DNA from: Patescibacteria group bacterium
Lineage (GTDB): Bacteria; Patescibacteriota; CPR2; UBA1875
Length of the DNA stretch: 64,000 bases
Direction: 5' to 3'
NCBI GenBank assembly: GCA_041737595.1
Contig: JBGSRK010000009.1
Coordinates: forward strand, 32,001 to 96,000
The notes under the pieces are model-generated. The model saw nothing but the letters and a program-made list of their open reading frames with translations, was not told the origin of the DNA and did not search any database. This document shows, piece by piece, positions 19,068 to 48,573 of the stretch. A program made the translations under genes and the position numbers. Numbering within the stretch: the first letter of the stretch is position 1; every line of letters starts with the position of its first letter.

Positions 19068-19096
19068 TTTACAGCTTATGGTTCTGATGATAGAAT
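19068..19096 (+). promoter_or_regulatory. Sigma70 promoter of purC
   Basis: TTTACA-17bp-TAGAAT with TGn extension. Confidence 0.6.
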
Positions 19097-19167
19097 GTCT
19101 CCACGTGAATATAGGATATGGATCCGTACTCAGGTTCCTAAAAACCGAAAGGCAAGGTGAATATCTA

Positions 19168-31525: not shown

Positions 31526-32434
31526 TTATTTTAGGTTTTTTGGTTTTAAATTATAATCATTACGAATGTCTCGTTGCTTACCATCTATCTCTACTGTTGC
31601 CATTACAGGATCTTCAATTCCAATAGCGTATGCGAGTTTAACGAGTACTTCTTGAGCTTTTTCTTTCTTAAGTATTTCAAGAGCTATTTCCCTAGCTTTT
31701 TTGGCACCTGATCTATCTACCTTTGTGTAATCTTTACCAGAAAAAGCGCCGCCGCCAACAGGTATTTCTGGACCATAGGCGTCAACAACTATTTTTCTTC
31801 CCGTTAAACCTGTATCAGCTTCAAATCCACCAACCGTAAATTCACCAGTTGGGTTAATAAGAATGTTTTTTGGTTTATATCTTTTTGCTAAATCATATAA
31901 AGGGGTTAAATCTTGGCCTTTTTTATGTTGTGCTGAGATAACAATGGTTTCTACTTCATTTTTTTTATTAATTGTAACTTGGCTCTTTGCGTCTGGACCG
32001 AAATTTTTAGGTAGTTCTTCTATAATTTTTTTAGCTAGATAATATTCTTGAGGTAAATATTCTTCATTATCAGAACAAGCGTAACCAATCATGATACCTT
32101 GGTCACCAGCACCTCCAGAATCTACCCCTAGCGCGATATTTGGACTTTGTTTAACTATATTTACTGTAATATCTAATTTATCTTTATATCCAATCGATTC
32201 ATATTTATCTTGAGCTATTTTCTTTACATCTACATCATGTTTAGATGTTATCTCACCCATAATATATAATTTGCCGTGTCCACCCATGCACTCTACAGCA
32301 ACTCGGCTATCTTTGTCTTTTTCTAAATACGCGTCCAGAATTGCATCAGATATTGCATCACACATTTTATCTGGATGCCCAGCTGAAACATATTCAGCAG
32401 TTCTAATCCCTTTAGTAGTTACAAAATTCTTCAT
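31526..32434 (-). CDS. metK: S-adenosylmethionine synthetase, short form (302 aa)
   Basis: GHPDK, GAGDQG, DAKSQV, GRKIVVD, GGGAFSGKD.TKVDRS; AAGGAG SD before ATG 32434. Confidence 0.93.
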   Translation of the reverse strand: MKNFVTTKGIRTAEYVSAGHPDKMCDAISDAILDAYLEKDKDSRVAVECMGGHGKLYIMGEITSKHDVDVKKIAQDKYESIGYKDKLDITVNIVKQSPNIALGVDSGGAGDQGIMIGYACSDNEEYLPQEYYLAKKIIEELPKNFGPDAKSQVTINKKNEVETIVISAQHKKGQDLTPLYDLAKRYKPKNILINPTGEFTVGGFEADTGLTGRKIVVDAYGPEIPVGGGAFSGKDYTKVDRSGAKKAREIALEILKKEKAQEVLVKLAYAIGIEDPVMATVEIDGKQRDIRNDYNLKPKNLK

Positions 32435-32452
32435 TTTTTCTCCTTTTAAACA

Positions 32453-32592
32453 AAAAAATCTTTCCGTATGGAAAGACTTCTTAACTTTAGTTAATACTCG
32501 TATCTTCCCACTTTCGTGGCTGGATTTAGCACCGTTGTTATCCGGTTGTTGGTAGATCACTGGGCCAGGTCCCTAACTACACTCTCAATATA
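32453..32592 (-). ncRNA. SAM-I riboswitch with downstream terminator
   Basis: Minus strand GAGAG..AGGGACCTGGCCC..ACAACC..GGTGCTAAATCC..GAAA..GAAGAT, then TCTTTCC-ATAC-GGAAAGA-T7; upstream of metK. Confidence 0.88.
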
Positions 32593-33416: not shown

Positions 33417-33818
33417 TTAGAATAACTTTTTACTAATAAAGTAAGAAATTGTTGCCACAACCCCTGTAAGTACACTACCCCAAACCATATCAACAAGGGT
33501 AATTGAGAGTGGCCAATTTTTCATGACTGCATAGTTTGTCAGATCGTAGGTTGCATAAGCAAAAAAACCGAATAGCGCACCATAAAGAAGAACATGTTGC
33601 CAACCTTTATCTATGTTTGGTAAAACTGCAAATATTAAAATCCCAACTATATAAATAAGATAAAAAATTATTGCAGCTAACCAGTTTGGTTGAGGGCTAA
33701 GACCTGGTATTGTTTTGAAATAGAAATCCTTTGCAATAACTCCTATCCAGAGCATGTCGATAGCAAAAAATATTGGAACCGTAGCTATATATAGCATTAC
33801 TTCTTTGATATTTACCAC
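33417..33818 (-). CDS. DUF2177 family membrane protein
   Basis: D.LWIG, AYATYDLTN, WP...VD..WG. Confidence 0.85.
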   Translation of the reverse strand: MVNIKEVMLYIATVPIFFAIDMLWIGVIAKDFYFKTIPGLSPQPNWLAAIIFYLIYIVGILIFAVLPNIDKGWQHVLLYGALFGFFAYATYDLTNYAVMKNWPLSITLVDMVWGSVLTGVVATISYFISKKLF

Positions 33819-33909
33819 CTTTCTTTACTATATTTTAACATATTATATATATTAGATTGGAGAATTTGTGTCATTTATATAAATAGACCGATAAAATCGG
33901 CCTATTTCG

Positions 33910-33942
33910 TATGCGTTCCATTTGGCGAAGCGAGTAACGAAG
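33910..33942. repeat. att-like repeat of tRNA-Asp 3' end and trailer
   Basis: 33910-33928 matches 49651-49669 at 18/19; 33924-33942 matches 45142-45160 at 17/19. Confidence 0.65.
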
Positions 33943-33948
33943 ATAATA

Positions 33949-34965
33949 TTAAGAATAATCCTTAATCAAAGATTTGATAATTTTAAATCTTTTTGTGTAA
34001 TCTAGATAATATTGTTTGAGTTCTTTTGTGAGTTTACCATCTTTCTCATCATGATAAGCTTCAAAATATCTACCTTGATATCTTTTCTCAAGGGCATAAT
34101 AAAACGACATTATTTTTTCTTCTTTATTAAGTTTTTTTATGGATTCATACCCATCAAAAAAAATTTCAATTTTTCTTTTACATGATTTTTTATTACCCCT
34201 TTTTAAGAGCACATGGAAAAACATCCCGATATCTTCTGAAACTACGCTATGTCTAGTATCATCAAAATCAAAAATACCCGAAAGTTTATTGTGCAAAAAT
34301 CTTAGATTCCCTTCATGCATATCAGAATGAATTTGAAGTGTTGGTAATTTCTTAATAACTTTAGGATTAATAAATTTTTGGTAATAATTAATAATTGGTA
34401 GATATGAATGACTAATATCCTCATCTTTCACCTCTTGTTTTTTCCTCGCCGCATCAACCCACCAATTGTAATAGTTTAGGGCTCCATCTTTTTCTCGAAT
34501 ATATTTTGGTTTATAATTCAAGGTTAATTTATGAATTTTAGCCATCCATTTTGCTAAATCTTTAATCTTTTCCTTATTAAACTTTTTGATTTTATCACCA
34601 TATATATAATCAAAAAGGACAACAAAAAGATCATATTGACCCAATCTAATCTTAGTAAATAACTTACCATTAGTAGTTTTATTAATATGAGCAACTAGTA
34701 TTTTATGTTCAGACAAAAAGTTTAGAAAATTCAATTCATATAAAAGATGTTTTTTATCCCTAAAAACTCGACCATATTGTTTATCATTATAAATCCTAAC
34801 TACATATTTCTTTTTGCTAATTTTAACTATTATATTAATATTTTCATAACCTTGTTCTACTGGCGTAAAATTAAATTGAAAATCGCCAGAATAATAATTT
34901 TTTAAAATTTCATGTAATTTTTCTTTCGTTACTAAATGGCCGTATTTATCTTTGAATCTTTCCAT
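33949..34965 (-). CDS. APH/type II homoserine kinase-like phosphotransferase
   Basis: GYENIN, YVVRIY, HSDMHEGN, FDFDD. Confidence 0.85.
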   Translation of the reverse strand: MERFKDKYGHLVTKEKLHEILKNYYSGDFQFNFTPVEQGYENINIIVKISKKKYVVRIYNDKQYGRVFRDKKHLLYELNFLNFLSEHKILVAHINKTTNGKLFTKIRLGQYDLFVVLFDYIYGDKIKKFNKEKIKDLAKWMAKIHKLTLNYKPKYIREKDGALNYYNWWVDAARKKQEVKDEDISHSYLPIINYYQKFINPKVIKKLPTLQIHSDMHEGNLRFLHNKLSGIFDFDDTRHSVVSEDIGMFFHVLLKRGNKKSCKRKIEIFFDGYESIKKLNKEEKIMSFYYALEKRYQGRYFEAYHDEKDGKLTKELKQYYLDYTKRFKIIKSLIKDYS

Positions 34966-35067
34966 ATATAAATCTTATCACAAATAGAGCTTAGTAGATT
35001 AGCACTTCTGGTAATTAATATATATAGGTTGAAAATTATTGATTACCTTTAAAACATTTAATTTTGT

Positions 35068-35901
35068 ATGTATATTTTTTTTAGATTTTTCACTAGAGGT
35101 ATGTCCCATTTCTTCGAATCTATAAAGCTTGCATTTTCTTGTAATAAGTCCTATAAACAGTCTATCAAACCATTAATCGAAAAAATTTATAACTGTATGT
35201 TTTTTAATCCAAAGAAGAAAAATGAATGGAAGTTTTGGGATTATAAAATGTCAAAAAAAGTTAGTGAAATTATTAAGGGAGGGGAATTTAAGGAAATAGA
35301 AGATCCGGTAGAAAAAAAGTTTTATTTTTGGTTATTAGAAGAATTGTCTAATGATATTAACTTTAATAAATTAAACACCCTTGAGTTAGGTGCAGGTTCT
35401 GGAGCTTTTTCCTATTATTTACAGAAGCGCTTCAGATGCTCGGTTACACTTTTAGATAATAGTAAAAATGCCATTAAATACGCAAAGTTACTAAACTATA
35501 GAGCAAAAATATTAGAAAAAGATGCTCGGCAGTCATTTGGTATCAGTAAATATAATTTTATTCATACAACTGGGTTACTTGAACACCTTAATGACAAAGA
35601 TATAAAACAAATAATCAAAAACATTAAGCGAGCCTTAAAACCTAATGGTATAGCCTTCTTAGCAGTCCCAAATTATTTTAGCCCAGCATTAATAACACTA
35701 TGGAAAATTCACGGCAAGGGTTCAGAAAGGTATATAACAATAAGAGATCTTAAAAAATATATAAAATCTTATGGATTTAACTTGATTGCAGCTCGTCATT
35801 CGTATTTTAGTTTTGAAAAGATAACAAGATATATCTGGTTGGAGAAAATAATAGGTAGACTCGGTCTAGGCTTTTTAAATTATATTATTGTACAAAAATG
35901 A
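35068..35901 (+). CDS. Class I SAM-dependent methyltransferase (true start probably downstream, e.g. ATG 35248)
   Basis: LELGAGSG, LLD, GLLEHL, LKPNG, VPN. Confidence 0.85.
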   Translation: MYIFFRFFTRGMSHFFESIKLAFSCNKSYKQSIKPLIEKIYNCMFFNPKKKNEWKFWDYKMSKKVSEIIKGGEFKEIEDPVEKKFYFWLLEELSNDINFNKLNTLELGAGSGAFSYYLQKRFRCSVTLLDNSKNAIKYAKLLNYRAKILEKDARQSFGISKYNFIHTTGLLEHLNDKDIKQIIKNIKRALKPNGIAFLAVPNYFSPALITLWKIHGKGSERYITIRDLKKYIKSYGFNLIAARHSYFSFEKITRYIWLEKIIGRLGLGFLNYIIVQK

Positions 35902-36178
35902 AAACCAATAACGAACATTCAAATTATTAAAAACTTATATCTTGGTTACCAATTTATAATTTTTAAGGTTGAAAAATAATATAATGAGTTAGTTTATTTG
36001 TATTATTTGTAATTTTAGTTTAAAAGGAGAATTATTATATGACTAGATAAAAAATAATTTCTGAAATGTTTATTACTAACCAAAAGATTAAAATGGCTAT
36101 TTAATATATTATAGATTCTTATTGAATTTATTACGATTATGGCTTATTATTAATGAAATATTAAAAAAAGGAAAAATC

Positions 36179-37195
36179 ATGTATATATATAATAAAAAAT
36201 ATTTCATTGTTACACTGGTTGTATTGGCTTTATTCCTAATTACATGTATCGTATTTAATATTTATATGCCAAAAAAACAGACATCTAAAACAAAAATTAG
36301 AATTGGTTGGCAAACTCCTTGGGCTATTCAAGGACAAATAGCTCAAAGTTTAAAAAATACTGATTATTTATCAAAAAATAATCTAGAACCAGAGTTTACT
36401 GGTTTTGATTCTGGTGCTCCTCTTAATGAGGCTGCGTTAGCAGGTAAAGTAGATGTTATATTTACTGCGGATCAACCAGCCGCTACATTATTATCTAAAA
36501 GCAGTGACTGGGTAATTGTTTCGCGATTGATGTATAATAGGGTTTCTCTGTATGTACCACCAAAATCAAGTATTTTAAGCATATCTGATTTAAAAGGGAA
36601 AACAGTTGGTATGCCATTTGGGGCAGCGGCACAGAGAATGGCTTATAAAGCAGAACAAGATATGGGGCTAAAACCAGGCATAGATGTGAAAAATGTAAAC
36701 CTGGGAATCTATGAACAAAGTGATTTGGTAAAAAATTCTGAAGCAACTAATTGGGGCAACTTTGATGCCTTAGCAGGTTTTGATCCGACCCCAGCTGTAT
36801 TTGAAGATAAGGGACTTATAAAGATGCTTAAAACCGATACTGTTATTTCACTAGTACTTGTAAACAAAAAATATATTTCTGAAAATACTGACTCAGTTCG
36901 TAGTTTTCTAAAATCACTTAAGTCTAGTTATCTATTTTATGCACAAAATCAGGAAAAAGCTAACAAATGGTTTAAGGATGCTTCTAGACTAAATATCTCG
37001 GATAATGCACTAAAAATTTCTGCCTCTGTTGAACCAAACTTAAAAGCAAAAAAAGAAAAAGATATAATACTTAATTTAAATGATAATGATTATAAAATAA
37101 TGCAGGAAGCTGCAGACTTTTTATTCAATAATGGTTTAATAAAAACTAAGGTTGATATGCGAGCTAATGTGAATTTAGATTATCTTACAAAGTAA
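36179..37195 (+). CDS. NitT/TauT/SsuA-family ABC substrate-binding protein
   Basis: N-terminal TM anchor, IRIGWQ, SGAPLNEAALAGKVD, DLKGKTVG. Confidence 0.85.
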   Translation: MYIYNKKYFIVTLVVLALFLITCIVFNIYMPKKQTSKTKIRIGWQTPWAIQGQIAQSLKNTDYLSKNNLEPEFTGFDSGAPLNEAALAGKVDVIFTADQPAATLLSKSSDWVIVSRLMYNRVSLYVPPKSSILSISDLKGKTVGMPFGAAAQRMAYKAEQDMGLKPGIDVKNVNLGIYEQSDLVKNSEATNWGNFDALAGFDPTPAVFEDKGLIKMLKTDTVISLVLVNKKYISENTDSVRSFLKSLKSSYLFYAQNQEKANKWFKDASRLNISDNALKISASVEPNLKAKKEKDIILNLNDNDYKIMQEAADFLFNNGLIKTKVDMRANVNLDYLTK

Positions 37196-38313
37196 TGAAA
37201 AATATCCTACTTATTTCTATTGATTCTGTAAGAGCAGATGTAGCATATAATAGCAATCTACCTACATTAGATAATTTAGCAGCCGATGGTATAAAATACA
37301 TTAATTGTATTTCCTCCTCTCCTCTTACCCCAGTTAGTCATGCGACTGTTTTGACTGGTTTACAACCATTTAACCACGGTGTCAGACATCTTTTTAAGGA
37401 AAAAATGAATGACAAAAGACCAACATTAGCAGAAATACTGAAATTAAATGGATATAAAACAAGAGCCATTGTCTCTTGTCCAGGGATGAATAGTTGGTAC
37501 GGATTTTCTCGTGGTTTTGATATATACGATGATGAAATCCCAAAATTAACAGACGGTTCTGATGCTCTACTTACTGTTGATGTTGAAAAAAGAGGGTTAG
37601 CAATGAAAAGAGCGAAAGACGTAGTTGATAGGGCTATTTCACATATAGATGAGTTAGATAACAACTTCTTTCTTTTTGTTCACTTTTTCGATGCGCACTG
37701 GCCTTACAACCCTCCTAAAAAATATGGTGGAAAAAATAAATACGAAGAGGAAGTATTTTATACTGATCATCATTTAGGTAGACTTATTAATCACCTTAAA
37801 GAGATTAATAAGTATAAAGATACTACTATTATATTATTCTCTGACCACGGGGAAGATCTTGGCGGATGGTATCCGAACGATAAAGCAGGAGATAAATATG
37901 GTAATCCAGACGAAAAAGGTCATGGTACACTACTATATGATCAGACCATAATGACTGTTCTTATTATAAAAGACTCACGAATTAAAAAAAATCAGACTGT
38001 AATAGACCAAGTCAGGCTTGTTGATATTATGCCAACAATCTTAGATTTACTAGATATAAAAACTGATAATCAGTTTGATGGATTTAACCTTTTAAAGACA
38101 ACTGAAGAGGAGGGAAAACAGCTACTAGGCTATTCTGAGACTTTTTTCCCTGAAGAAATCAAAAGTGGTATTAGTAGAAAAAAATCATTCCGTTTAAATA
38201 ATACTTATAAAGTCATTATTGGGTTAGATAATGATGCAATTGAGTTTTATAACTTAATTGCTGACCCAAACGAGCAAAACAACATGTTTAAAACAATTGA
38301 CAAAAATGCATAA
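37195..38313 (+). CDS. Sulfatase-fold (alkaline phosphatase superfamily) enzyme, Thr at nucleophile position
   Basis: ISIDSVRAD, PLTPVSHATVLTG, HFFDAHWPY, SDHGE, GHG, DIMPTI. Confidence 0.88.
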   Translation: MKNILLISIDSVRADVAYNSNLPTLDNLAADGIKYINCISSSPLTPVSHATVLTGLQPFNHGVRHLFKEKMNDKRPTLAEILKLNGYKTRAIVSCPGMNSWYGFSRGFDIYDDEIPKLTDGSDALLTVDVEKRGLAMKRAKDVVDRAISHIDELDNNFFLFVHFFDAHWPYNPPKKYGGKNKYEEEVFYTDHHLGRLINHLKEINKYKDTTIILFSDHGEDLGGWYPNDKAGDKYGNPDEKGHGTLLYDQTIMTVLIIKDSRIKKNQTVIDQVRLVDIMPTILDLLDIKTDNQFDGFNLLKTTEEEGKQLLGYSETFFPEEIKSGISRKKSFRLNNTYKVIIGLDNDAIEFYNLIADPNEQNNMFKTIDKNA

Positions 38314-38325
38314 GTTTGGTAGAAT
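38297..38325 (+). promoter_or_regulatory. Sigma70 promoter of hisS overlapping sulfatase 3' end
   Basis: TTGACA-17bp-TAGAAT. Confidence 0.7.
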
Positions 38326-38380
38326 ATGCCCTACGAAGGCTCAGTGGGCTTTCGGGCCCCTTAAAAAGGAGAAGATTTAG

Positions 38381-39682
38381 ATGAATAAGAAAAGAGCAGG
38401 ACTCCTTAGTGGGTTCTTGGATTTCCTTCCCGAGGTAGAGCTCATGAGAGAGGCCATGATCGATAAGGTTACTGGCGTCTTCAAGCTCTATGGGTATGGT
38501 CCCCAAGATACTCCCTGTCTGGAGTACGCCGAGACCTTGTTAGACAAGTATGGTGAGAACCAGAAGCTTGTCTACGAGTTCGAGGACAATGGTGGGCGAA
38601 AGGTTGCCCTGAGGTATGACCTGACCGTTCCGCTTTCACGTGTGGTGCCGTCCTATCCAAGTAAGATCAAGCTTCCATTCAAGCGCTACCAAGTAGGCAA
38701 GGTGTGGCGAGCAGATCGTCCTGGTAAAGGACGTTTTCGCGAATTCATACAAGTAGATGCTGACACAATCGGCACGTCCTCGCCGCAGCTCGATTCTGAG
38801 CTTGTCATGGTTACACTTGATGTCATCGCCGCACTGAAGCTCACAGCATATGTGAGGATCAACGATAAACGGATCCTCGACGCTCTGAGCAAAACATGTG
38901 GTCTGACCGAAGAGCAGAAGATACTTGTACTGCGCTCAATTGACAAGCTGGATAAGATCGGTCAAGACGCTGTAGTTGTCGAGATTAGCAAGATTGGCCT
39001 CGATGCTGAGAAGCTAGATATCGTACAGCAGTATCTCGGCATCAACGGGATACCCCGTGAAGTCATCACCAGTCTTCGCGACTTGCTTCAGCCGTGTACT
39101 GAGCTTGACGAGGGATGCAAAGTTCTCGAGACAGTATTCGAAACCGTCTTTGCGCTTGGCTACGATGCCAAGTCTCTGCGTATCGATCCATGTATCGCCC
39201 GAGGCCTCGACTACTACACGGGAGTCATCTTCGAGACCATGCTGGTTGATAACCCAGAATTCGGGAGTATCTGTTCCGGCGGACGTTACGACTCGATCGT
39301 CAAGGATGGCAATGGCAGAGTTTTGCCGGCGGCCGGTGTTTCAATCGGCCTAGATAGACTCTTTGCGGCCATGCTTGATCGGGATCAGCTTCCCAATGCG
39401 GAAGCAGTTGCGAGAGTCCTCATTACAAACATGGGAGACTCTACTGCTCGGAAAGCAACAGAGATCGCCTCGTCACTCAGACGCGCCGGTATCTCTGTGC
39501 TTTACTACCCAGAAAAGGCCAAGCTCGCAAAACAGCTTGGCTACGCATCCGACCTTAAGATCCCTTGGGCCCTTATCGTAGGTCCCGAAGAGATCGAAGC
39601 CGGTATGTACACCATCCGTTCTATGGTAGACCGTCAGCAGACAACCGTACCCCAGGATCAAATCATCAAATCACTCCGCTAG
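38381..39682 (+). CDS. hisS: Histidyl-tRNA synthetase, canonical; GC-rich
   Basis: LRYDLTVP, WRADRPGKGRFREFIQ, ARGLDYYTG, GGRYD, GVSIGLDR, anticodon-binding domain. Confidence 0.95.
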   Translation: MNKKRAGLLSGFLDFLPEVELMREAMIDKVTGVFKLYGYGPQDTPCLEYAETLLDKYGENQKLVYEFEDNGGRKVALRYDLTVPLSRVVPSYPSKIKLPFKRYQVGKVWRADRPGKGRFREFIQVDADTIGTSSPQLDSELVMVTLDVIAALKLTAYVRINDKRILDALSKTCGLTEEQKILVLRSIDKLDKIGQDAVVVEISKIGLDAEKLDIVQQYLGINGIPREVITSLRDLLQPCTELDEGCKVLETVFETVFALGYDAKSLRIDPCIARGLDYYTGVIFETMLVDNPEFGSICSGGRYDSIVKDGNGRVLPAAGVSIGLDRLFAAMLDRDQLPNAEAVARVLITNMGDSTARKATEIASSLRRAGISVLYYPEKAKLAKQLGYASDLKIPWALIVGPEEIEAGMYTIRSMVDRQQTTVPQDQIIKSLR

Positions 39683-39715
39683 ATCAGTGGGGCGGCTTCG
39701 CCGCCCCACTGATCT
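39681..39715. terminator. Perfect 15-bp-stem hairpin after hisS
   Basis: AGATCAGTGGGGCGG-CTTCG-CCGCCCCACTGATCT; T tract weak. Confidence 0.65.
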
Positions 39716-39732
39716 CAATCTTTTAAACGAAA

Positions 39733-40368
39733 ATGATTATTTTAAATAACATATTAACATTATTTATTACAGATGGACTTGCCAGCCTTAGTCGGGTTTT
39801 TGTCGGTTTTTTTATTGCTATTATTCTAGGGGTAGGGCTAGGTACTATTACTTTTTATATAAAAGGGTATAGAAATATACTAAAATTAATTGCAGAATTT
39901 CTTAAGTCAATTCCACCCATAGCATGGATTCCTATTACTATTATGTTTTTAGGGCTTGGTTCGCAATCTGCGATATTTATAGTCTTTTTAGGTGGTTTCT
40001 TCCCTATTTTTCTTAATACAGCTTACGGCGTAACTTCAATGCCAAAAAAATATACTGAAATATCAAAAAATTTCGGAGTAAATGGAGTATATTTTTATCA
40101 TAAAATTCTCTTAGGCTATCTCATGCCATATATATTAACAGGGCTAAAAATAGGGATAGGGATTGCCTGGACAAGTGTAATTGCCTCTGAAATGATAGGA
40201 GTTCAAAGTGGTCTTGGCTATTATATTCAGATAAACAGACTTTTACTTAATACCCAGGAGGTAGTTACTGGCATGGTAATGATAGGCGTAATTGGTTACG
40301 GAATGACAAAGTTTGTTGAGAAAATTGAGAAGAAGTACTTAGTTTGGCAAGAGGCAAAGAATGCTTAG
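39733..40368 (+). CDS. NitT/TauT ABC permease
   Basis: SLSRV, IPPIAWIP, FFPI, ASEM, GLGY. Confidence 0.9.
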   Translation: MIILNNILTLFITDGLASLSRVFVGFFIAIILGVGLGTITFYIKGYRNILKLIAEFLKSIPPIAWIPITIMFLGLGSQSAIFIVFLGGFFPIFLNTAYGVTSMPKKYTEISKNFGVNGVYFYHKILLGYLMPYILTGLKIGIGIAWTSVIASEMIGVQSGLGYYIQINRLLLNTQEVVTGMVMIGVIGYGMTKFVEKIEKKYLVWQEAKNA

Positions 40369-41047
40369 ATTGGATAATGTTATTTTTAATAGAGGCGGCA
40401 AAAGAATACTTGAAAATATCAACATTCATATCAAAAAATCTGAAGTTGTGAGCATACTTGGACCATCGGGGATAGGGAAAACTACTCTTGCAAAGATTAT
40501 GTCAGGTTTACTGAATCCTATTTCTGGTTCAGTATTTTTAGAGGGGAATATTCTGAAAACCCCTGTACCAACACTAGTATTATCTCACCAAGAATCAGAT
40601 TTGTTTGATTGGTTGACGGTTGAGGAAAATGTAGGGTTAGTAGGTGGCAAGAAAAACGCAGAAAAATGGCTTAATATATTTGGTCTGGTTGAATACCGTA
40701 ATAACTATCCAAAAACCCTCTCAGGTGGTATGAAAAAAAAAGTTTCACTAGCTAGAGCCGCAAGTGTAAATCCTTCTGTAATAATTTTAGACGAGCCGTT
40801 CTCTTCACTGGATGAAAAACAAAAAATAAAGTATTATAAAGAATTTAAAAATTTAGCAAATCAAGAAGGAGTTGCAATTATTGTTGTGACTCACGACATA
40901 AACGAAGCATATAATTTTTCAAACAGAATTATTTTTCTAGGTGGCAACCCTGCGACTATAATAGATGAAAAAATTCCGACCGGGGAAGAAAGTTCAAGTG
41001 AAAAAAGAGATTTAGTACTAAAAAATCTTGAGTCGATAGGAAAATGA
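40361..41047 (+). CDS. NitT/TauT ABC ATP-binding protein
   Basis: GPSGIGKT, LSGGMKK, LDEPFSSLD, VTHD. Confidence 0.92.
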   Translation: MLRLDNVIFNRGGKRILENINIHIKKSEVVSILGPSGIGKTTLAKIMSGLLNPISGSVFLEGNILKTPVPTLVLSHQESDLFDWLTVEENVGLVGGKKNAEKWLNIFGLVEYRNNYPKTLSGGMKKKVSLARAASVNPSVIILDEPFSSLDEKQKIKYYKEFKNLANQEGVAIIVVTHDINEAYNFSNRIIFLGGNPATIIDEKIPTGEESSSEKRDLVLKNLESIGK

Positions 41048-41050
41048 AAG

Positions 41051-42391
41051 ATGAAATATTTAAAAACCGTACTCCCGATGGAAATAAATGAAATCCCAAA
41101 GGCAGCTTCGCTTTTAATATCAAGAGCAAGAGATTTTGAAGTCTTACTATTTTCTGAGGCAGGGAGCTGGCCTATTAAATATATTTGGGAAAAGATGGCT
41201 GCAAAAGATAATAATTATAATAAAGTATTTTTTTCATCAAAAATTACTTCATTTTCAAAAAGTCCACTAGCTAATCAATTGTGTGGACTGCTAACAATTA
41301 CTGAAAGAAAATCAAAGCTTTCTCAAAAGAAAAAAAATAAGATTGCTACACTTTTAAATTCATTTAATGATGAATTTAAAGGTAAAATAACAAATCAGTT
41401 ACTTAATCAAAATGTAGAAAAAATTATACATTATATTTCTTCAATGGGGCTTATAATCCCTAGTGAAGAAGGGTTGATAAAACAAAATAAATGTTTTGAT
41501 AATAATATATCCACACTTAGTAAAAATTTTATTGATTTTAAAAAAAAATCAGTATCATACATTCTTTCTGATCTCCCAAATATTAAACATGAAGTTAGGC
41601 CTATACTGCAGATAATTTTATCAGATACTAAATTTGGTAAAGCAATAAAGTCACGAAAAGTTTATGTATTTGATGAGATAATAAGTCGTGGGAGGACTAT
41701 CAATTCTATAGAAGTGATTATAAATTCATTTTCATCCACAACGGATTGGGTTATGGGAGTTGTCTATTGCCCAAAGTTTTATGTTGGAAGTAAAATTGAT
41801 TTTGTTTATAGCGATAAAAAGGCATTACCTACGTCAAATCGACCAGATATGATTGGAGAAGTGACTTATGAGACTGTATTTGCTTTTGAAACTAAATCAC
41901 TTACGAATATTTTGCCTAATACAAGAGTAAAAAATGAAGACGATATAAGTATTTATAACAGTGAAATTGCAAAGTTTAATAGTCGATATTTCCCAAAGCT
42001 TAAAATGTTAAATAAGACATCTTTTCGAGCTCTTTTAAACTTATACTTTATGGCTGACGATAAGGATATATTTGAAAAGTGCCTTCATCTTAATTTAGTT
42101 GAATCAGTAAGCCTTTTAGAAGAAATCGCTTTTTATATAACAATGCCATTTCCACTTTCAGATATTATAAAACGAAATAAGTTTAAAAAAGAATCACGGC
42201 AAGTATTAAAAAAATTAGAATGCTCAATAACTAATTCTGATTTTTCTGATAACCTTAACAAGCTAAAAATAAAGTACTATGCTATTAGAAGTATAATTAT
42301 TAAGAGTGAAATAGCTTCCTGGATAAAAACAAATACTAAAGTAATAAGGGAGTTAGACTTAGTACTGGAGGAGGTTTTTAATGGAAAATAG
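41051..42391 (+). CDS. Hypothetical protein with type I PRTase-like PRPP-binding loop
   Basis: KVYVFDEIISRGRTI resembles hhhhDDhhxxGxT. Confidence 0.5.
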   Translation: MKYLKTVLPMEINEIPKAASLLISRARDFEVLLFSEAGSWPIKYIWEKMAAKDNNYNKVFFSSKITSFSKSPLANQLCGLLTITERKSKLSQKKKNKIATLLNSFNDEFKGKITNQLLNQNVEKIIHYISSMGLIIPSEEGLIKQNKCFDNNISTLSKNFIDFKKKSVSYILSDLPNIKHEVRPILQIILSDTKFGKAIKSRKVYVFDEIISRGRTINSIEVIINSFSSTTDWVMGVVYCPKFYVGSKIDFVYSDKKALPTSNRPDMIGEVTYETVFAFETKSLTNILPNTRVKNEDDISIYNSEIAKFNSRYFPKLKMLNKTSFRALLNLYFMADDKDIFEKCLHLNLVESVSLLEEIAFYITMPFPLSDIIKRNKFKKESRQVLKKLECSITNSDFSDNLNKLKIKYYAIRSIIIKSEIASWIKTNTKVIRELDLVLEEVFNGK

Positions 42392-43778
42392 CTATAAACA
42401 TATTATTCTTATTTCTATTGATACTTTACGAGCAGACTGTATTACTGCAGTCGAAACTAGTGATTTTATAAAAAAATATGGTCCAAAAAATTTTTCTACA
42501 AAATCACTAAATAATATTGTGAAAAAAGGTACTTTTTTCACAAACTGTATCTCGGCAGCACCATATACAACAGCTTCACATGCAGCCTATTTTACTGGTT
42601 GTTGGCCTAAAAATAACGGAGTTTATGAATTCTTTAACCAAAAATTAAAGAAACCTACTATATTTGAATTTGCAAAAAATAACCAATATAGAACTATATT
42701 TCAAACTGACTTTCCTATTATTCTAGGTGAAACACTTGGGTTTACTAAGGATGTTGATGATTATTTTATTGAGGATGAAATATCAGCTTTTGACAAATTA
42801 AAAAATTCAACAAAAAAAACTGTTTCTTTTTTCCATTTTGGTGGTGTTCATTATCCATATGGGTTTCATAAACTAAAGTTTGCTGGAAAGGATTATATCC
42901 ATAAAGTTGAAAGTCTAGAAAAAGAATTATCCGTTAGTAGTAAAGACAAATTAGACGATATATTAGTAGAAAGCTATTATAATAACAAAGATAGAGAGCT
43001 ACTTTCCAGATATAAAAGGATAGTCGACAAACTTTACAGAGAAAAAAAATATAATCGACTGAAGAATCTATATATTGAGGGAATAGATTATTTTATGGAA
43101 AATCGGTTCAATAGCTTTATAAAAAAAATAGTTGATTTTACCGACAGCACTGGTAGTTTACTAGTTATCTTTGCTGACCATGGGGAAGAATGGGATGATT
43201 TATCGCGCGGACATGCAAATTCCATCTCTGACACTGTTCTTCGAGTCCCTCTTATATTCTATGGGAAGGGTATCCCAAAAGGCGTAATAAATGATAGTTT
43301 AGTTAGAACAATCGATCTTCTCCCTACTATTTCGAATTTATTTAACATAGAAACCCCTCAATTAGATGGCGTAGCCATGAAATTTACAAAAGAAAAGAAA
43401 AATACAAACAATATGGCAATTTCTCAGGTTTGGAGATTAGGAGATAAGGATAAAATAGCAAAACACCAACAAATGATGATTAACAAAGAAAAGGTGGCGC
43501 CCCTACAGACTCTCTTAGAAAAAGAATCAATATATTTCAAAAATGTAGCATTTAAAAGAATATACAACAAAGAAGGAACAACTATTTCTGAAAAAACATA
43601 TTATAATAATGGAAAACAACTTATAAATTCAGTTGATACACAAAATGAAGAGTTAATAATAATGAAAAATCTACTTGAGAAATATAATTCAAAAGGATTT
43701 CGAAAAGTTGAGGCGGCAATTAGTTTACCTAAAAGACTTATTAAAGAGCTTCGCATGCAGGGCTATAAAATAAAATAA
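42381..43778 (+). CDS. Second sulfatase-fold enzyme, Thr at nucleophile position
   Basis: ISIDTLRAD, PYTTASHAAYFTG, HYPY, ADHGE, GHAN, DLLPT, C-terminal LRMQGY. Confidence 0.88.
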   Translation: MENSYKHIILISIDTLRADCITAVETSDFIKKYGPKNFSTKSLNNIVKKGTFFTNCISAAPYTTASHAAYFTGCWPKNNGVYEFFNQKLKKPTIFEFAKNNQYRTIFQTDFPIILGETLGFTKDVDDYFIEDEISAFDKLKNSTKKTVSFFHFGGVHYPYGFHKLKFAGKDYIHKVESLEKELSVSSKDKLDDILVESYYNNKDRELLSRYKRIVDKLYREKKYNRLKNLYIEGIDYFMENRFNSFIKKIVDFTDSTGSLLVIFADHGEEWDDLSRGHANSISDTVLRVPLIFYGKGIPKGVINDSLVRTIDLLPTISNLFNIETPQLDGVAMKFTKEKKNTNNMAISQVWRLGDKDKIAKHQQMMINKEKVAPLQTLLEKESIYFKNVAFKRIYNKEGTTISEKTYYNNGKQLINSVDTQNEELIIMKNLLEKYNSKGFRKVEAAISLPKRLIKELRMQGYKIK

Positions 43779-43789
43779 AGGAGAATATT

Positions 43790-45076
43790 TTGCCTAAATA
43801 TAAAACAATTAAACCTCCCAGAGGAATGCATGATCAATTTGAAGAAGATTTATTAAAAATTGAATCAGTTATTTCTATAGCATCTGAGATTGCTAGATCA
43901 TACGGATTTAAAAGAATAGAAACCCCCACTATTGAGTCAATCGAAGTTTTCACAAATACTGGAGATAAGACGATTGATAAATGTTTTACATTTATGGATA
44001 AATCAAACCGCGAGATGATATTGAGACCAGATATAAATGCTCCAATCAGCCGCGCTATAGTAAATCATAGCTCATCTCAACCACTACCTCAAAAAATATT
44101 TTTCCATGGCAGCGTTTTCAGATATAGAAAATCATACCGACGTGAGTTTATTATGTTTGGGGTAGAGACATATGGGATTGCTGAGCCTATTGCAGACGCC
44201 GAAATACTTCGAGTAGTGGTTGATTTGATTAAAAGACTGGGTTTTAAAAAATATACGATTGAATATAGTAATCTTTCAATATTTAGTAGGTTGATTAAAT
44301 TTTTATCAAAGACAGACAAAGTTAATGTTAATGTAGAAGAGCTAATATATAAGCTTAGATTTCATAATAAAAAAGAGCAAAAAAGTATTTTAAATAAAAT
44401 AGGTTTCCAAAAAAAATCAGAAGAGCTAATCATGGATTTTCTATCTTGCCCAGAGGTGAATAAAAACAGCTTTAATTTACTTAAAAAGGTAGCGGCTATG
44501 GATAAGTCTATAGAAATTGAAGCTCTGTCTGTTCTGAATTTCCGAGATGAACTCTTAAAACAACAGTTATCAAATTGTATTTTTAAAATTTCAAATCTAC
44601 ATGGTGAATCATTTTACTCTGGTCTTACATATCGTTTATATTTATCAACAGAAATGGGAGATGGGGGAAGATATGACAATTTTACTCTTTTACTAGGGGG
44701 TTTATATATTCCAGCTACTGGGTTAGGTTTTGGTATTAGTAGATTAATTAGACTAGCAGAAGCAGAAAGTATATTAATCCCAATAAAAACAAACATAAAA
44801 TATTTAGTTCGAATAGTAAGAGGCTCTGAAGAAACTGTACGACCTTATCTGAGATTACTTAGGAAACAAAATATTATTGTCAACGAAATCCCTGAAGACT
44901 ATAAAGATGATCGGTTGATGCCATTTGCAATCAAAGGTGGTTATCACCGTATCTTTGTTATAAAAAGTTTTAACAAAATAAGTGGACTTTATGAAGTTTG
45001 GTCAATAAATATAGTTGATGGAACTAATAAAAAATTTTCTACATATGGTCTAAAAGATATATTTAATTGCTCATAA
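43790..45076 (+). CDS. Divergent HisRS paralog (HisRS/HisZ-like)
   Basis: PRGMHD, IETPTIE, LRPDIN, FRY..RREF, GGRYD, GFGISR; His-pocket motifs altered. Confidence 0.8.
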   Translation: MPKYKTIKPPRGMHDQFEEDLLKIESVISIASEIARSYGFKRIETPTIESIEVFTNTGDKTIDKCFTFMDKSNREMILRPDINAPISRAIVNHSSSQPLPQKIFFHGSVFRYRKSYRREFIMFGVETYGIAEPIADAEILRVVVDLIKRLGFKKYTIEYSNLSIFSRLIKFLSKTDKVNVNVEELIYKLRFHNKKEQKSILNKIGFQKKSEELIMDFLSCPEVNKNSFNLLKKVAAMDKSIEIEALSVLNFRDELLKQQLSNCIFKISNLHGESFYSGLTYRLYLSTEMGDGGRYDNFTLLLGGLYIPATGLGFGISRLIRLAEAESILIPIKTNIKYLVRIVRGSEETVRPYLRLLRKQNIIVNEIPEDYKDDRLMPFAIKGGYHRIFVIKSFNKISGLYEVWSINIVDGTNKKFSTYGLKDIFNCS

Positions 45077-45253
45077 TATTAAAATGTGAAGACAAACCAG
45101 GTAATATTATATTTAGATCTTTTCCCCAAATTACAAACTTAGGCGATGCGAGTAACGCAGTGACTATCCAGAAAGATATAGAAATGAGATAAATAAAACA
45201 TTATAAAAAGGGATAGTCTTTATGTTTCTTATATTTTTTAAGTATTAAAGGAA

Positions 45254-45283
45254 AGAAGCCACACCCCGCTGGGGTATGGCTTC
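45254..45283 (-). terminator. Terminator after purB
   Basis: Minus strand GAAGCCATACCCC-AGC-GGGGTGTGGCTTC-TTTCCTTT. Confidence 0.65.
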
Positions 45284-45306
45284 AATTCCGTTGTGTCTTA
45301 TTCGAT

Positions 45307-46713
45307 CTAGATGGTCAGTGAGCCAAGAATTTCGGTCCACTGGCCGACAATGCGCTCGGTCGACTCAATCGAGAGACCAATATAGTTATGCGCCGGATCC
45401 TTGATAGTCGCAAGTTCAGAAGCGTTGAAAGTGTTGATATAGGTACGAAGCTTCTGACTTTGAAGTGCGAGGTCCTGGACCGAGACCCCTGTCTCTTTCG
45501 ACTCGAGAGTCAAAAGACGAACAGCTTCATGCGCATCCGGATGACCGTGTTTGGCCAAAAGAATGTAGAGCTGCTCACCACATGAACCCTTTCTCATCTC
45601 GAGGTTGCGTTCCATGTTGCCAGTGTGAACCTGAAGCTTCTTCATCGTTTTTGTGATTTTGGTCACGACGATGTAGAGATAGCCCAGAATCTCACCATAA
45701 GTACGGCCGGATGCTGAGTTAGTTAGGTCACGTTGGTGCTCACAGATCTGATCAAGCTGGACCGTAACCCAGCGACCAACCAGAACCTTGTAGAGTGACT
45801 CCGCGTTTTCGAAGTTGATCGGGTTCTGCTTGTCGGGCATCGTTGATGACCCGACCTGACCAGCTTCGAAAAATTCACCGACTTCGGCAATTTCTGTACG
45901 CTGCAGGTTCCGCATATCGCGTGAGAGTCCGGCAAGGAGTCCGGCGGTCTGTACGACCTCAAACAGTAGGTACTGAAGCGGTTCAGGTGGTGCGATCTGA
46001 GTTGAGATCGGCGCCGGGTTGACACCAAGTCGGCCAAGCACAAGACGCTCGAACTCACGAGGATCATCCACTAGAAGCGAGCTGGCATTGTACGCTCCAA
46101 CTGCTCCAGAGAACTTCCCAACCAGACCGTTTTTGGCCTGGCAGAGTTTAAGAATCTTCTGACCAAGGGCGTCGACGTACTTTGAGATGGCATTGCCAAA
46201 GGTGATCGGAACGGCGTGTTGGCCGTGGGTTCGACCTACCTGAAGCTGAGCCTTCTCCCGGAGAGCAAGATCGATTAGGACCTTCTCGAGCTCGATCAGA
46301 GCCGGAAGAAGGACCTGTTCAGTCACTGCCTTGTAGCGCGCCACGTTGGCAGTATCGATAATGTCGTACGAAGTGGCAGCAAGGTGGACGAATGGACGGG
46401 CTTCTGGACTTACTCGAGCCTGAATGCAGTTGACGACCGCTCGGATGTCATGCCGTGTCAGATCTTCCTCCTTGTACACCTCATCGGTCGTGATCTGCTT
46501 GCAAGCCTCAGTGACCTCATCAAGGACATCAGACGAACAAAGGCCAAGCTCTGCAAGAGTGGCAACAAGCGCACACTCTGCCTCGAGCTTGTAATCCGTG
46601 AAAGCATTCTCGGACAGGAACGGTACGAGCGGAATCACATCCTTCGCGTAACGAGTATCGATAGGAGCAATCCCATCCCAACGGTCATAAGTGACTTTTT
46701 CAGTAGGCTCCAT
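45307..46713 (-). CDS. purB: Adenylosuccinate lyase; GC-rich (start probably ATG 46713)
   Basis: RHD, TSYDI, GRTHGQHA, GAVG, GSSTMPDKQNP, HQRDLTNS. Confidence 0.93.
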   Translation of the reverse strand: MEPTEKVTYDRWDGIAPIDTRYAKDVIPLVPFLSENAFTDYKLEAECALVATLAELGLCSSDVLDEVTEACKQITTDEVYKEEDLTRHDIRAVVNCIQARVSPEARPFVHLAATSYDIIDTANVARYKAVTEQVLLPALIELEKVLIDLALREKAQLQVGRTHGQHAVPITFGNAISKYVDALGQKILKLCQAKNGLVGKFSGAVGAYNASSLLVDDPREFERLVLGRLGVNPAPISTQIAPPEPLQYLLFEVVQTAGLLAGLSRDMRNLQRTEIAEVGEFFEAGQVGSSTMPDKQNPINFENAESLYKVLVGRWVTVQLDQICEHQRDLTNSASGRTYGEILGYLYIVVTKITKTMKKLQVHTGNMERNLEMRKGSCGEQLYILLAKHGHPDAHEAVRLLTLESKETGVSVQDLALQSQKLRTYINTFNASELATIKDPAHNYIGLSIESTERIVGQWTEILGSLTI

Positions 46714-46881
46714 GGCGATTATCTTCTCCTTTTTCAAAGGGCTGGACACAACGAGAATGTCGCTATTTTACTACCAAATAAGGGAAAGGTAAACGTGCTT
46801 TATATCCTAAATGTTCAAAAAACTTTATTTTTTTAAATCGATTTTAGTAAAAATAAAAAAATAGATAAAAAACATGAATTA

Positions 46882-46910
46882 TTTACAGTAAACGATTGTT
46901 ATGTTAATAT
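46882..46910 (+). promoter_or_regulatory. Sigma70 promoter of purE-purC2
   Basis: TTTACA-17bp-TAATAT with TGn extension. Confidence 0.6.
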
Positions 46911-46984
46911 ACCCGCACGTGTAAGAAAGACAAACGTCAAGATCTACAGTTTCCTTCAATAGAGAGGTAAGGTGAAAAGGCTCT

Positions 46985-47533
46985 ATGGCTGCAAACGTAC
47001 CGCTTCTTAGTACCAAATGGCCCAACAAAGAGGCATATGTCGCGATTGTGCTCGGTAGCAAGAATGATTACAGCAAGATCGAAAAGTTGATCGAGATGAT
47101 GGAGAAGTTCTCTATCCCCTACGTCATCGTCGTCATCTCGGCACACCGCAACAAGCAAAAACTCGACGAGTTCATCCAAGGATTATCTGCCACAAACGTT
47201 CGCTTTGTCGTAGCTGTCGCCGGTATGGCAGCAGCACTAGGTGGCGCAATTGCCGCGGAGACCTGTCTTCCAGTATTTGGCATCCCACTACCATCACCGA
47301 ATGACCCCGATGGTATTGGTGCCAAATTCGCAACCAATGAGTTGCCTCCAGGCATCGCACAAGTAGCAGTTCTGGCGGACAATGTCTCAGACAACAGCAC
47401 ACGAATCGTGAACTTGATTGCTCGAACTCTTGCGATCCTTGACCCCAACTATAAGGGGTTGAAAGAGTTCATGGCAAGTGCATCCGTCGAGAAGCCACCA
47501 GTCATTCCGTATGTTCCAAAGGAGGCGAGCTAG
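46985..47533 (+). CDS. purE: PurE-family AIR carboxylase/mutase; GC-rich
   Basis: GSKND, SAHR, AGMAAALGG, PVFGIP, LPPGI. Confidence 0.85.
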   Translation: MAANVPLLSTKWPNKEAYVAIVLGSKNDYSKIEKLIEMMEKFSIPYVIVVISAHRNKQKLDEFIQGLSATNVRFVVAVAGMAAALGGAIAAETCLPVFGIPLPSPNDPDGIGAKFATNELPPGIAQVAVLADNVSDNSTRIVNLIARTLAILDPNYKGLKEFMASASVEKPPVIPYVPKEAS

Positions 47534-48388
47534 ATGGCTCACAGAAGAGAAATCAACCGTGGCAAGACTAAGACGATCTACGAAGGCACCAAACTCGGAA
47601 CTGTCCACGTTGTCAGTCGTGACGACATAACCGCTGGCGATGGCCAGCGTAAAGATCTGATCCCGGGCAAGGGCCATCTTTCGACCGTCACTACCGCGAA
47701 CATGTTCATGCTTCTTGCCGCACACGGCATCCCTACCCACTTCATGAGCATGATCAATGGGAATACGTTCAAAGCGAAGCAAGTCGACATGATCCCGCTC
47801 GAATGTGTCGCTCGGAGACTCGCTGTCGGTTCGTTCCTTGATCGTCAGCCCTCGTTCAAATCCGATCCTCCTCACCGCTTCGAGGCGATTGTTACCGAGC
47901 TCTTCTACAAGAGCGACGCAGACAACGACCCGATCGTCGTTCCTCAGAGCAACGGTGAGCTCTGGATTCACGATGCACACAAGCCGATTACAGACGCAAC
48001 CCACAAGGGTATGCTTTCACCGGTGGCGTATCATGTCCCACCGGAGAGCTACAACGGCACTCAACTCGAACTCATCGAACAACTGCTCAAGATCACCGAA
48101 CGAGTCTTTGAGATCCTTGAGCAGGCCTGGCGACAAATGGCGAACGCTAATCTCGTTGATCTCAAGATCGAATTTGGGGTGACGAGTGATGGCGAGCTCA
48201 TAGTTGCCGACGTTATCGATGCAGATTCATGGCGTCTCTGGCCAGACGGCGACCCGAACCAGGCATGGGACAAGGACTACTACCGTCAGCATGCCGATGC
48301 TTCTCGCATTGAAGCTACTCTTCACAAGTACAATGAAGTAGCCAAGGCGAGTAACGTTGTTGCCACTTACCGAGACATGACATCCTAA
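47534..48388 (+). CDS. purC: Second SAICAR synthetase, PAICS-like type; GC-rich
   Basis: GKTKTIY, DITAGDG, LECVARR, DLKIEFG, ADVIDADSWRLWP, DKDYYR. Confidence 0.9.
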   Translation: MAHRREINRGKTKTIYEGTKLGTVHVVSRDDITAGDGQRKDLIPGKGHLSTVTTANMFMLLAAHGIPTHFMSMINGNTFKAKQVDMIPLECVARRLAVGSFLDRQPSFKSDPPHRFEAIVTELFYKSDADNDPIVVPQSNGELWIHDAHKPITDATHKGMLSPVAYHVPPESYNGTQLELIEQLLKITERVFEILEQAWRQMANANLVDLKIEFGVTSDGELIVADVIDADSWRLWPDGDPNQAWDKDYYRQHADASRIEATLHKYNEVAKASNVVATYRDMTS

Positions 48389-48447
48389 CCCCCTTAAGGG
48401 GAGAAAGAACCTGAAGGTTCCCTCTCTCTGAGAGGGGGCCTTTATTT
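48389..48447 (+). terminator. Long terminator hairpin after purC2
   Basis: CCCCCT...AACC-TGAA-GGTT...AGGGGG then CCTTTATTT. Confidence 0.6.
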
Positions 48448-48573
48448 ACAAAAAAGTGCTAAGCATATTAGTTGATTTGAGTCATTAATAGAAATAAGCT
48501 ACTTAAAGTAGCTTATTCAAGGTGTGTTATATTTAGCGAATTGGGGGGCAAGAGCTACAATCATAATCACTTA

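Follow-up and report, generated by a model that had tools for sequence, protein, structure and literature searches.

What do a complete histidyl-tRNA synthetase (HisRS) and a diverged HisRS paralog do among the genes of an ATP-binding cassette (ABC) importer? The question is raised by a locus of a Patescibacteria group bacterium (GTDB lineage Patescibacteriota; CPR2; UBA1875; assembly GCA_041737595.1). The window that we analysed is a stretch of 64,000 nucleotides, positions 32,001 to 96,000 of contig JBGSRK010000009.1, and the locus lies at positions 33949-45076 of this window. The genome (G000) is 1.09 Mb long in 143 contigs and 96.9% complete, a size usual for Patescibacteria. Eight neighbouring genes of the locus encode the importer, two enzymes of the alkaline phosphatase superfamily, an orphan protein and the two HisRS-family proteins. 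To judge from their conservation, these eight genes form a rare, horizontally moving cassette that is kept together in unrelated hosts. As to their function, we tentatively propose, with somewhat less than even confidence, that the cassette couples histidine to an imported small molecule, or recovers it from such a molecule, by means of the HisRS pair.

Distribution of the eight-gene cassette

When the open reading frames (ORFs) were checked and scanned against Pfam and NCBIfam, the ten ORFs in 33949-45076 were recovered with the coordinates, strands and order in which they had first been listed. This confirmed the run described by an earlier, sequence-only reading of the window: substrate-binding protein (SBP), sulfatase-1, hisS, permease, ATPase, phosphoribosyltransferase (PRTase)-like protein, sulfatase-2 and HisRS paralog. 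Co-occurrence of the genes elsewhere was one of the checks proposed by that reading, and it was found in a second, unrelated lineage. All eight core proteins were matched by BLASTP, at 31-57% identity, in a metagenome-assembled genome (MAG) of Candidatus Buchananbacteria (G408), where the order differs and an insertion sequence (IS) splits the set; portions of the cassette turned up on three metagenome contigs as well. The core genes are as follows, all on the + strand, each with its best family match and its identity to the G408 counterpart.

36122..37195, +: putative membrane-anchored SBP of a NitT/TauT-type ABC importer (NMT1, 1e-8); 57%
37195..38313, +: putative cytoplasmic alkaline-phosphatase-superfamily enzyme 1, Thr at the nucleophile position (PF00884, 5.6e-38); 57%
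38381..39682, +: complete HisRS (hisS) of the paralog-linked clade (TIGR00442; PF13393 and PF03129, HGTP_anticodon); 45%
39733..40368, +: ABC importer permease (BPD_transp_1, 3.6e-19); 51%
40361..41047, +: ABC importer ATPase (ABC_tran, 2.6e-29); 40%
41051..42391, +: orphan 446-aa protein with a phosphoribosyl pyrophosphate (PRPP)-loop-like motif, YVxDExISRGRT (no Pfam or NCBIfam match); 31%
42381..43778, +: putative cytoplasmic alkaline-phosphatase-superfamily enzyme 2, Thr at the nucleophile position (PF00884, 8e-20); 49%
43790..45076, +: HisRS paralog, apparently re-tooled (PF13393, 2e-39); 35%

One G408 contig carries, in this order, genes for a histidine kinase, two response regulators, the SBP, enzyme 1, NIF3, the orphan protein and enzyme 2, followed by an IS. 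A second contig carries hisS, the HisRS paralog, the permease, TauE and the ABC ATPase. The two halves are connected by metagenome contig L007, on which enzyme 2, an IS and hisS follow each other. Two distinct IS occupy this same site between enzyme 2 and hisS, one with an rve-type integrase (L008:12868-13731) and one with DDE_3 and helix-turn-helix (HTH) genes (L007:4113-5179). NIF3 and TauE were considered as core members and rejected as accessory, as both are part of the G408 cassette and absent from that of the window; NIF3 was not found in the window genome at all. For the kinase that precedes the window cassette there is no counterpart among the compared G408 proteins, and in BLASTP the window methyltransferase did not match the one encoded close to the G408 cassette. 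These two genes and purB/purE/purC, which the sequence-only reading had counted as partners, were not kept with the G408 cassette and cannot be called conserved members.

The cassette is rare. The orphan family was found in none of 60 relatives and in none of 400 other genomes of the phylum. The paralog subfamily was likewise not found in 400 other genomes of the phylum (next best score, 214 bits, compared to 552 bits for the self-match) nor in 120 relatives of G408; one unpublished genome, G178, is counted in these figures. Just two relatives of the orphan protein are present among 5.8 billion database proteins, and scans with its alignment added four metagenome loci and one genome locus, that of G408. 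The paralog subfamily comprises about 16 clusters at 33-44% identity before generic HisRS scores are reached (1.84 billion representatives searched). The pair of hisS and paralog was observed directly in two genomes. We infer it for five more contigs, because 5 of the best 38 hisS matches share the source and an equal-sized contig with a paralog representative: P0170/P0008 (contig size 55,145), P0179/P0005 (9,906), P0190/P0014 (44,810), P0198/P0016 (13,036) and P0165/P0017 (14,386).

The GC content leaps from about 30% to 52% at the ends of hisS. Moreover, the bin holds about 100 short contigs at 45-68% GC (among C3-C143, many below 3 kb) and a 13-kb contig, C127, at 62% GC, which look like contamination rather than parts of this genome. 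The leaps and the many short high-GC contigs would be expected if the high-GC hisS were an assembly chimera or a bin contaminant and the described cluster an artefact, but we find this scarcely credible. A separate assembly of run X1, possibly the source sample, contains a contig of 14,580 nt that covers 34252-48831, including all GC junctions, with 0 differences. In X2, another sample of that study, 74% of the sampled words are present and all 30 bins are covered; one X2 contig (45047-45680) runs across the change from low to high GC that lies between the paralog and purB. The G408 cassette carries the same type of HisRS. Because the X1 contig spans the GC junctions and X2 adds coverage, hisS is a genuine part of the window genome.

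The two HisRS-family proteins

The cassette hisS encodes a canonical HisRS: it scores 360.5 bits against TIGR00442 (cut-off, 286.75) and has both the catalytic and the anticodon-binding domain. The ORF has a GC content of 51.5% (57% at third codon positions), compared to a genome median of 32.7% per ORF and to 26-33% for the rest of the cassette; the large contigs of the genome lie at 32-37%. The sequence-only reading had described the run as tightly coupled, and start and stop codons do overlap or abut everywhere in the cassette but around hisS, which is bordered by two predicted signals.

38297..38325, +: promoter-like site 5' of hisS, TTGACA-17-TAGAAT with TG (11/12, a match to the consensus only), the top-scoring such site in 33800-45400
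39681..39715, +: terminator-like hairpin 3' of hisS, a 16-pair stem (11 of the pairs GC) followed by T-rich sequence; no stronger one in the region

The window genome has three HisRS-family genes: the cassette hisS, the paralog and a separate hisS on contig C137, beside a relA/spoT-like ORF (named by eye). The sequence-only reading had proposed a search for another housekeeping hisS, and the C137 gene answers to it. Its product is, by comparison with relatives, the native housekeeping enzyme, because G001-G004, genomes of the same family, each have one HisRS and it is 70-73% identical to these; identity to the HisRS of the other relatives searched is 51-60%. A stretch at the end of contig C99 (4243-4431) encodes 63 residues that are 98% identical to the N terminus of this native enzyme, and is probably a piece of the C137 gene split off by assembly or else a strain variant. 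The cassette HisRS, in contrast, shares at most 29% identity with any HisRS in 30 relatives, which marks it as foreign to the window host. The cassette hisS is foreign to the other host lineage as well: G415 and G425, close kin of G408 (S51 peptidase 77-82% identical), have HisRS enzymes only 26-34% identical to that of G408. We found no canonical HisRS in G408 besides the cassette hisS. The cassette thus appears to bring its own HisRS, which coexists with the native enzyme in the window genome and seems to have replaced it in G408.

Enzymes of the cassette type, recognized by an LRYDLTVP motif, are the sole HisRS in 109 of 400 other Patescibacteria genomes, at no more than 47% identity, and the nearest relatives among the 5.8 billion proteins reach only 43-47%. 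In a quick maximum-likelihood tree of 88 rows, which included the first 70 of the 119 hisS matches listed, the hisS genes of the window, of G408 and of the five linked contigs (7 of 7 linked rows) fall into one clade of 31 rows (SH-aLRT, 98). The 16 HisRS rows from genomes without the paralog all lie outside that clade. The shared contigs and this tree indicate that hisS is a member of the cassette, of a clade that travels with the paralog, rather than a stray insert. A hisS with 52% GC in a cassette with 26-33% GC could possibly be the result of replacement in situ by a xenolog from a cassette-bearing donor with a higher GC content.

The paralog is about 25% identical to either HisRS of the genome. 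It aligns with HisRS over its full length, including the position of the anticodon-binding domain (hhalign, 99.7%), and yet it departs from HisRS in three respects: its score against TIGR00442 is 189.7 bits, below the cut-off of 286.75; the HGTP_anticodon domain is not matched by Pfam in any of 16 members of the subfamily; and the RGLDYY motif is altered. The longer P0020 (546 aa) was excluded from the alignments A3 and A4. The motif 2 Arg, GGRYD and the motif 3 Arg are retained. The motif 2 loop is three residues shorter, RGLDYY has become LHGxxFY (Arg to His), and LRPEGT/LRYDLT has become LRPDINAP. The roles of the HisRS active-site residues are known from the structural literature, and the Arg of RGLDYY has a catalytic one. 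The paralog therefore reads as re-tooled rather than dead, with the class II ATP-binding arginines kept and the amino-acid pocket apparently rebuilt.

HisZ is a HisRS relative that lacks the anticodon-binding domain. The paralog could be a HisZ-like regulatory subunit that activates a new phosphoribosyltransferase, the orphan protein, just as HisZ does for short HisG. HisZ (TIGR00443) is its second-best NCBIfam match at 161.7 bits, one member of the subfamily is annotated as an ATP-PRTase regulatory subunit, and, as in the HisZ-HisG system, a HisRS paralog stands near a protein with a PRPP-loop-like motif. However, HisZ has a cut-off of 271.65, which this score does not reach, and neither hisG (PF01634) nor histidinol dehydrogenase (PF00815) gave a single match in the 96.9%-complete window genome. 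PF00977 gave only partial matches of 24.8 and 17.2 bits, both within NMO-family genes. In addition, where HisRS has its anticodon-binding domain the paralog still has a C-terminal domain, and the putative PRTase is by sequence not related to HisG. Because of the low score and because hisG and histidinol dehydrogenase were not found, the paralog is by these comparisons not HisZ, so that the true HisZ with a distant hisG that the sequence-only reading had allowed for is not what the genome holds, and we consider a HisZ-like role very unlikely. Searches of the literature outside subscription journals and supplements gave no account of this cassette nor of any bacterial HisRS paralog except HisZ; the papers listed by one of them all concerned eukaryotic GCN2.

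The other core proteins and the flanks

The sequence-only reading had classified the two PF00884 proteins as Thr-type enzymes of the sulfatase fold, and both indeed have a threonine at the formylglycine position. In enzyme 1, T45 aligns with the formylglycine position of solved sulfatases, and in enzyme 2 a Thr aligns with the formylglycine residue of 9bes. The motifs T-P-V-S-H and T-T-A-S-H replace C/S-x-P-x-R, with S-H instead of S-R after the Thr. T-x-x-S-H is invariant in six of six orthologs, and so is the catalytic and metal-binding set D10, T45, D217-H218 and H243, as is characteristic of the alkaline phosphatase superfamily. S1 sulfatases are the nearest group to both enzymes by sequence, and the likeness extends to a C-terminal domain of the SGSH_C type. 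Neither of them, however, can be called an S1 formylglycine sulfatase, because Thr replaces the formylglycine residue. The sequence-only reading had named hydrolases of simple sulfate esters as the finding that would speak against it, and classical sulfatases are excluded by the same residue. In both proteins the catalytic domain comes first, and neither an N-terminal signal nor a membrane segment can be made out by eye. These features suggest that they act in the cytoplasm by a Thr-mediated transfer of phosphoryl (or sulfuryl) groups, and not as classical sulfatases.

The best NCBIfam matches of SBP, permease and ATPase all belong to the NitT/TauT family, and all are below the equivalog cut-offs. 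The SBP reaches 95 bits against SsuA_fam (cut-off, 163.5), with SsuA (2x26; E, 1.7e-5) as its top PDB match, and the top NCBIfam matches of the permease are SaoP, NtrB, TauC and SsuC. The transporter can be taken as an importer because an SBP is present.

The orphan protein gave no Pfam, NCBIfam or PDB match. Its motif YVxDExISRGRT is invariant in six of six members, where D-E-x-I-S-R-G-R-T follows a predicted beta-strand. hhalign aligns this motif, weakly, with the PRPP loops of two proteins from the same genome, ComF (E, 0.0084; probability, 4.8%) and PurF (E, 0.083). A profile search against PDB gave one match at chance level, and the ESM Atlas returned only unnamed clusters below 0.9. Of the label PRTase-like, the motif resembling a PRPP loop stands; it is the sole basis for the label, which neither PF00156 nor a fold match bears out.

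Outside the core, the locus comprises two further genes and a pair of repeats. The upstream methyltransferase and the divergent APH kinase are present as the sequence-only reading had said, and the direct repeats that it saw on both sides are real.

33921..33955: left imperfect direct repeat bracketing the block, identical to 45139-45173 at 27 of 35 nt
33949..34965, -: APH-fold small-molecule kinase (PF01636, E 7e-15), not core, within the bracketed block
35068..35901, +: class I S-adenosylmethionine (SAM)-dependent methyltransferase (Methyltransf_23, E 4e-17), not core
45139..45173: right direct repeat bracketing the block, identical to 33921-33955 at 27 of 35 nt

The top NCBIfam match of the kinase is homoserine kinase, at 88 bits far under the cut-off of 271. 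A 10-mer at the core of the repeat occurs three times in the 1.09-Mb genome (both strands searched), each time on the same strand, at 33930, 45148 and 48347. The third copy falls within the 3' end of the high-GC purC. No Rfam or tRNA match was found inside 33900-45200. Flank synteny with same-family genomes is limited to a DUF1295 gene, and an empty site of the island could not be demonstrated.

Pfam confirmed that purB, purE and purC lie 3' of the cassette, in the adjacency that had been claimed. These genes are part of one of several islands of about 50% GC that dot the low-GC genome (window 45307-48388 and 19078-20079; C71:4400-8100; C120:12400-14800) and hold mostly nucleotide-metabolism genes: purB, purE, purC, a second phosphoribosylaminoimidazolesuccinocarboxamide (SAICAR) synthetase, ThyX, thymidylate kinase, dCTP deaminase and two NMO-family genes. 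The cassette hisS belongs to the same GC class. To our knowledge, Patescibacteria generally lack nucleotide biosynthesis. The islands look like the result of repeated recent gene import into this Patescibacterium from donors with a higher GC content. The 2-6 kb upstream of the cassette hold, all on the - strand, genes for an S66 LD-carboxypeptidase of the MccF-like family (28024-29064), a class II tRNA synthetase of the Asp/Asn/Lys type (30024-31421) and a compact metK (31526-32560).

A possible histidine chemistry and its parallels

In the histidine chemistry that we tentatively propose, the importer would take up a small molecule bearing a phospho- or sulfo-ester, possibly a nucleoside or a ribosyl compound, and the two Thr-type enzymes would take off its phosphoryl or sulfuryl group or pass it on. 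The orphan protein may act on a ribose-phosphate moiety. The cassette HisRS would provide His-tRNA(His) or histidyl-adenylate (His-AMP), and the paralog would move the histidyl group onto the small molecule. The pathway could also run in the other direction, so that histidine and a nucleoside are recovered from such a compound.

Several results weigh against this proposal. Some concern hisS: with its own promoter-like site and strong terminator it does not require co-regulation with its neighbours, its GC content is unlike that of the rest of the cassette, and it sits on a long branch of the quick tree. In the same tree the label "linked" is not significant (6 changes; 77 of 500 shuffles gave as few), because no linkage status is assigned to 24 rows of the 31-row clade. 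The pair of hisS and paralog is apparently more widespread (about 16 clusters) than the orphan family (two database proteins and five loci), and therefore its role may be independent of the other genes. The paralog, unlike the AcmF protein discussed below, keeps its ATP-binding arginines, and so it may activate a substrate itself, without His-tRNA. The assignment of the orphan as a PRTase is weak: none of six members was matched by PF00156 at E values up to 10, the AlphaFold2 model is poor (mean pLDDT, 56.8), and Foldseek returned nothing from PDB at an E of 0.001 or below. Finally, general family scans of the ten ORFs gave no match to sulfate-activation enzymes, sulfotransferases or nucleotidyltransferases.

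A different explanation would be that two unrelated modules travel together and share no chemistry. One would be an operon for scavenging organophosphates or organosulfonates, made up of the importer, the two phosphodiesterase-like enzymes and the orphan protein. The other would be a HisRS/pseudo-HisRS pair that serves translation; it might, for example, be a heteromeric HisRS, a regulated one or a factor that binds tRNA(His). With its predicted promoter and terminator hisS forms an autonomous transcription unit; it adjoins the paralog in G408, though the two are apart in the window, and as the sole canonical HisRS found in G408 it must serve translation there. The databases also hold more members of the pair than of the orphan family, and the SBP, the permease and the ATPase resemble Ssu/Tau/Nrt importers. 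Nevertheless, two unrelated lineages received the eight genes by transfer, and neither this nor the rearrangement has parted them. The window genome, despite having a native HisRS, keeps both hisS and the paralog intact and interleaved, with overlapping start and stop codons. We consider two independent modules rather unlikely.

It is also conceivable that the cassette produces an inhibitor of HisRS, such as a histidyl-adenylate mimic, and that the cassette hisS is the resistant copy of the producer. The window genome has three HisRS-family genes, and the gene types of the cassette parallel those of the ascamycin cluster. Extra copies of aminoacyl-tRNA synthetases (aaRS) occur in biosynthetic gene clusters for aaRS inhibitors, among which the available text of PMC12945691 names SbzA and AcmD. 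A second synthetase of the target type is present in the window genome (on C137 and in the cassette), but in G408 we found only the cassette hisS and the paralog. A sole enzyme, with no native-type HisRS found, fits replacement and not an added immunity copy, so the sequence-only reading's idea of hisS as an extra copy holds for the window genome and is not general. Furthermore, the cassette has no exporter, as a transporter with an SBP is an importer, and the ten ORFs gave no match to an adenylyltransferase, a sulfotransferase, sulfate activation or an exporter; no warhead-forming enzyme was recognized. The production of an inhibitor therefore seems clearly unlikely to us.

MccE and MccF are immunity enzymes against microcin C. 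In Buchananbacteria-like genomes we observed a conserved row of GNAT, HIT, S51, S66 and NUDIX genes (G408 L046:3948-6990; in kin L060, L061 and L076). All four classes of enzyme that are known to inactivate aminoacyl-nucleotides of the microcin-C type are represented in it. Two of its classes, HIT (MccH) and S51 (MccG), are microcin-C immunity enzymes according to the available text of published work (PMC7157772, PMC9239234). The row lies near the G408 cassette and was considered as evidence on the cassette, but it was rejected as such and counts against the production of an inhibitor, because kin without the cassette have it too (HIT-S51-NUDIX-S66 in G415; GNAT beside S51, twice, in G425). 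In the window genome no HIT gene was found and S51 lies on another contig. The row may be a standing detoxification battery against aminoacyl-nucleotides of the microcin-C type, independent of the cassette.

Taken together, the interpretation offered by the sequence-only reading survives in its co-occurrence and its non-HisZ paralog, and finds a precedent in the ascamycin cluster; it does not survive in the kinase, the methyltransferase and purBEC as partners nor in the general idea of an extra copy. If the proposed histidine chemistry is right, the cassette would be a compact system of eight genes that makes a new metabolite linked to histidine, or serves as a new salvage route, in a host that apparently cannot make histidine. 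A housekeeping-type aaRS would be carried in with it and, in one genome, apparently displaces the host's own enzyme. The jobs of only a few aaRS paralogs are known, and new chemistry came to light with every one that was solved (HisZ, AcmF, SbzA); EpmA and MshC are further examples of this. A bolder scenario, to which we give little credence, is that ultra-small (and probably episymbiotic) Patescibacteria swap a cassette that builds a His-AMP mimic from an imported precursor, with a HisRS of its own that supplies the pathway and is itself insensitive to what the pathway makes. If true, the candidate phyla radiation would possess a portable weapon or signal aimed at an aaRS, and the compound would be the first natural aminoacyl-nucleotide directed against HisRS.

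Among known systems, the importer is most like the Ssu/Tau/Nrt group, with SsuA/TauA, SsuC/TauC/NtrB and NtrCD as the top models of its three components; unlike in those systems, its genes are interleaved with HisRS-family genes. The two Thr-type enzymes share the Thr nucleophile and the D/DH/H metal set with NPP, EptA/MCR and LtaS, and the NPP and EptA/LtaS models match both of them weakly. They differ from these members of the superfamily in being soluble (by eye), in being nearer to S1 sulfatases and in their SGSH_C-type C terminus.

The closest documented parallel to the cassette is, by analogy of gene content, the ascamycin (acm) cluster of Streptomyces, and the differences are large. Disruption of AcmG reportedly ended ascamycin production. 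As described in the available text of two papers, AcmD is a canonical AlaRS that charges tRNA, and AcmF is an AlaRS-like, aminoacyl-tRNA-dependent protein that passes alanine to a nucleoside sulfamate; AcmF is truncated and has lost the activation of ATP and alanine, and the sulfatase AcmG, the acylsulfatase AcmI and the PRTase AcmV adjoin AcmD and AcmF (PMC4257720, PMC12945691). The AcmD/AcmF type of gene pair, a canonical aaRS with a diverged paralog of the same family in one cluster, is present in the window as well, and so, going by these descriptions, are two proteins of the sulfatase family and, if the weak motif of the orphan protein is read in this way, a PRTase. The amino acid is histidine and not alanine, the paralog is full length and has the motif 2 and 3 arginines, the "sulfatases" are of the Thr type and an ABC importer is present rather than an exporter. 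The cassette has no genes for sulfate activation, sulfotransferase, radical-SAM enzymes or aminotransferases, and the host is a Patescibacterium of about 1 Mb. SbzA of the sbz cluster (SB-203208) is, according to the available text, an extra aaRS that is both a self-resistance protein and an aminoacyl-tRNA-dependent aminoacyl transferase (PMC12945691). As it is described there, SbzA unites these roles in a single IleRS-like protein, whereas the window has two separate proteins, a canonical HisRS and its paralog.

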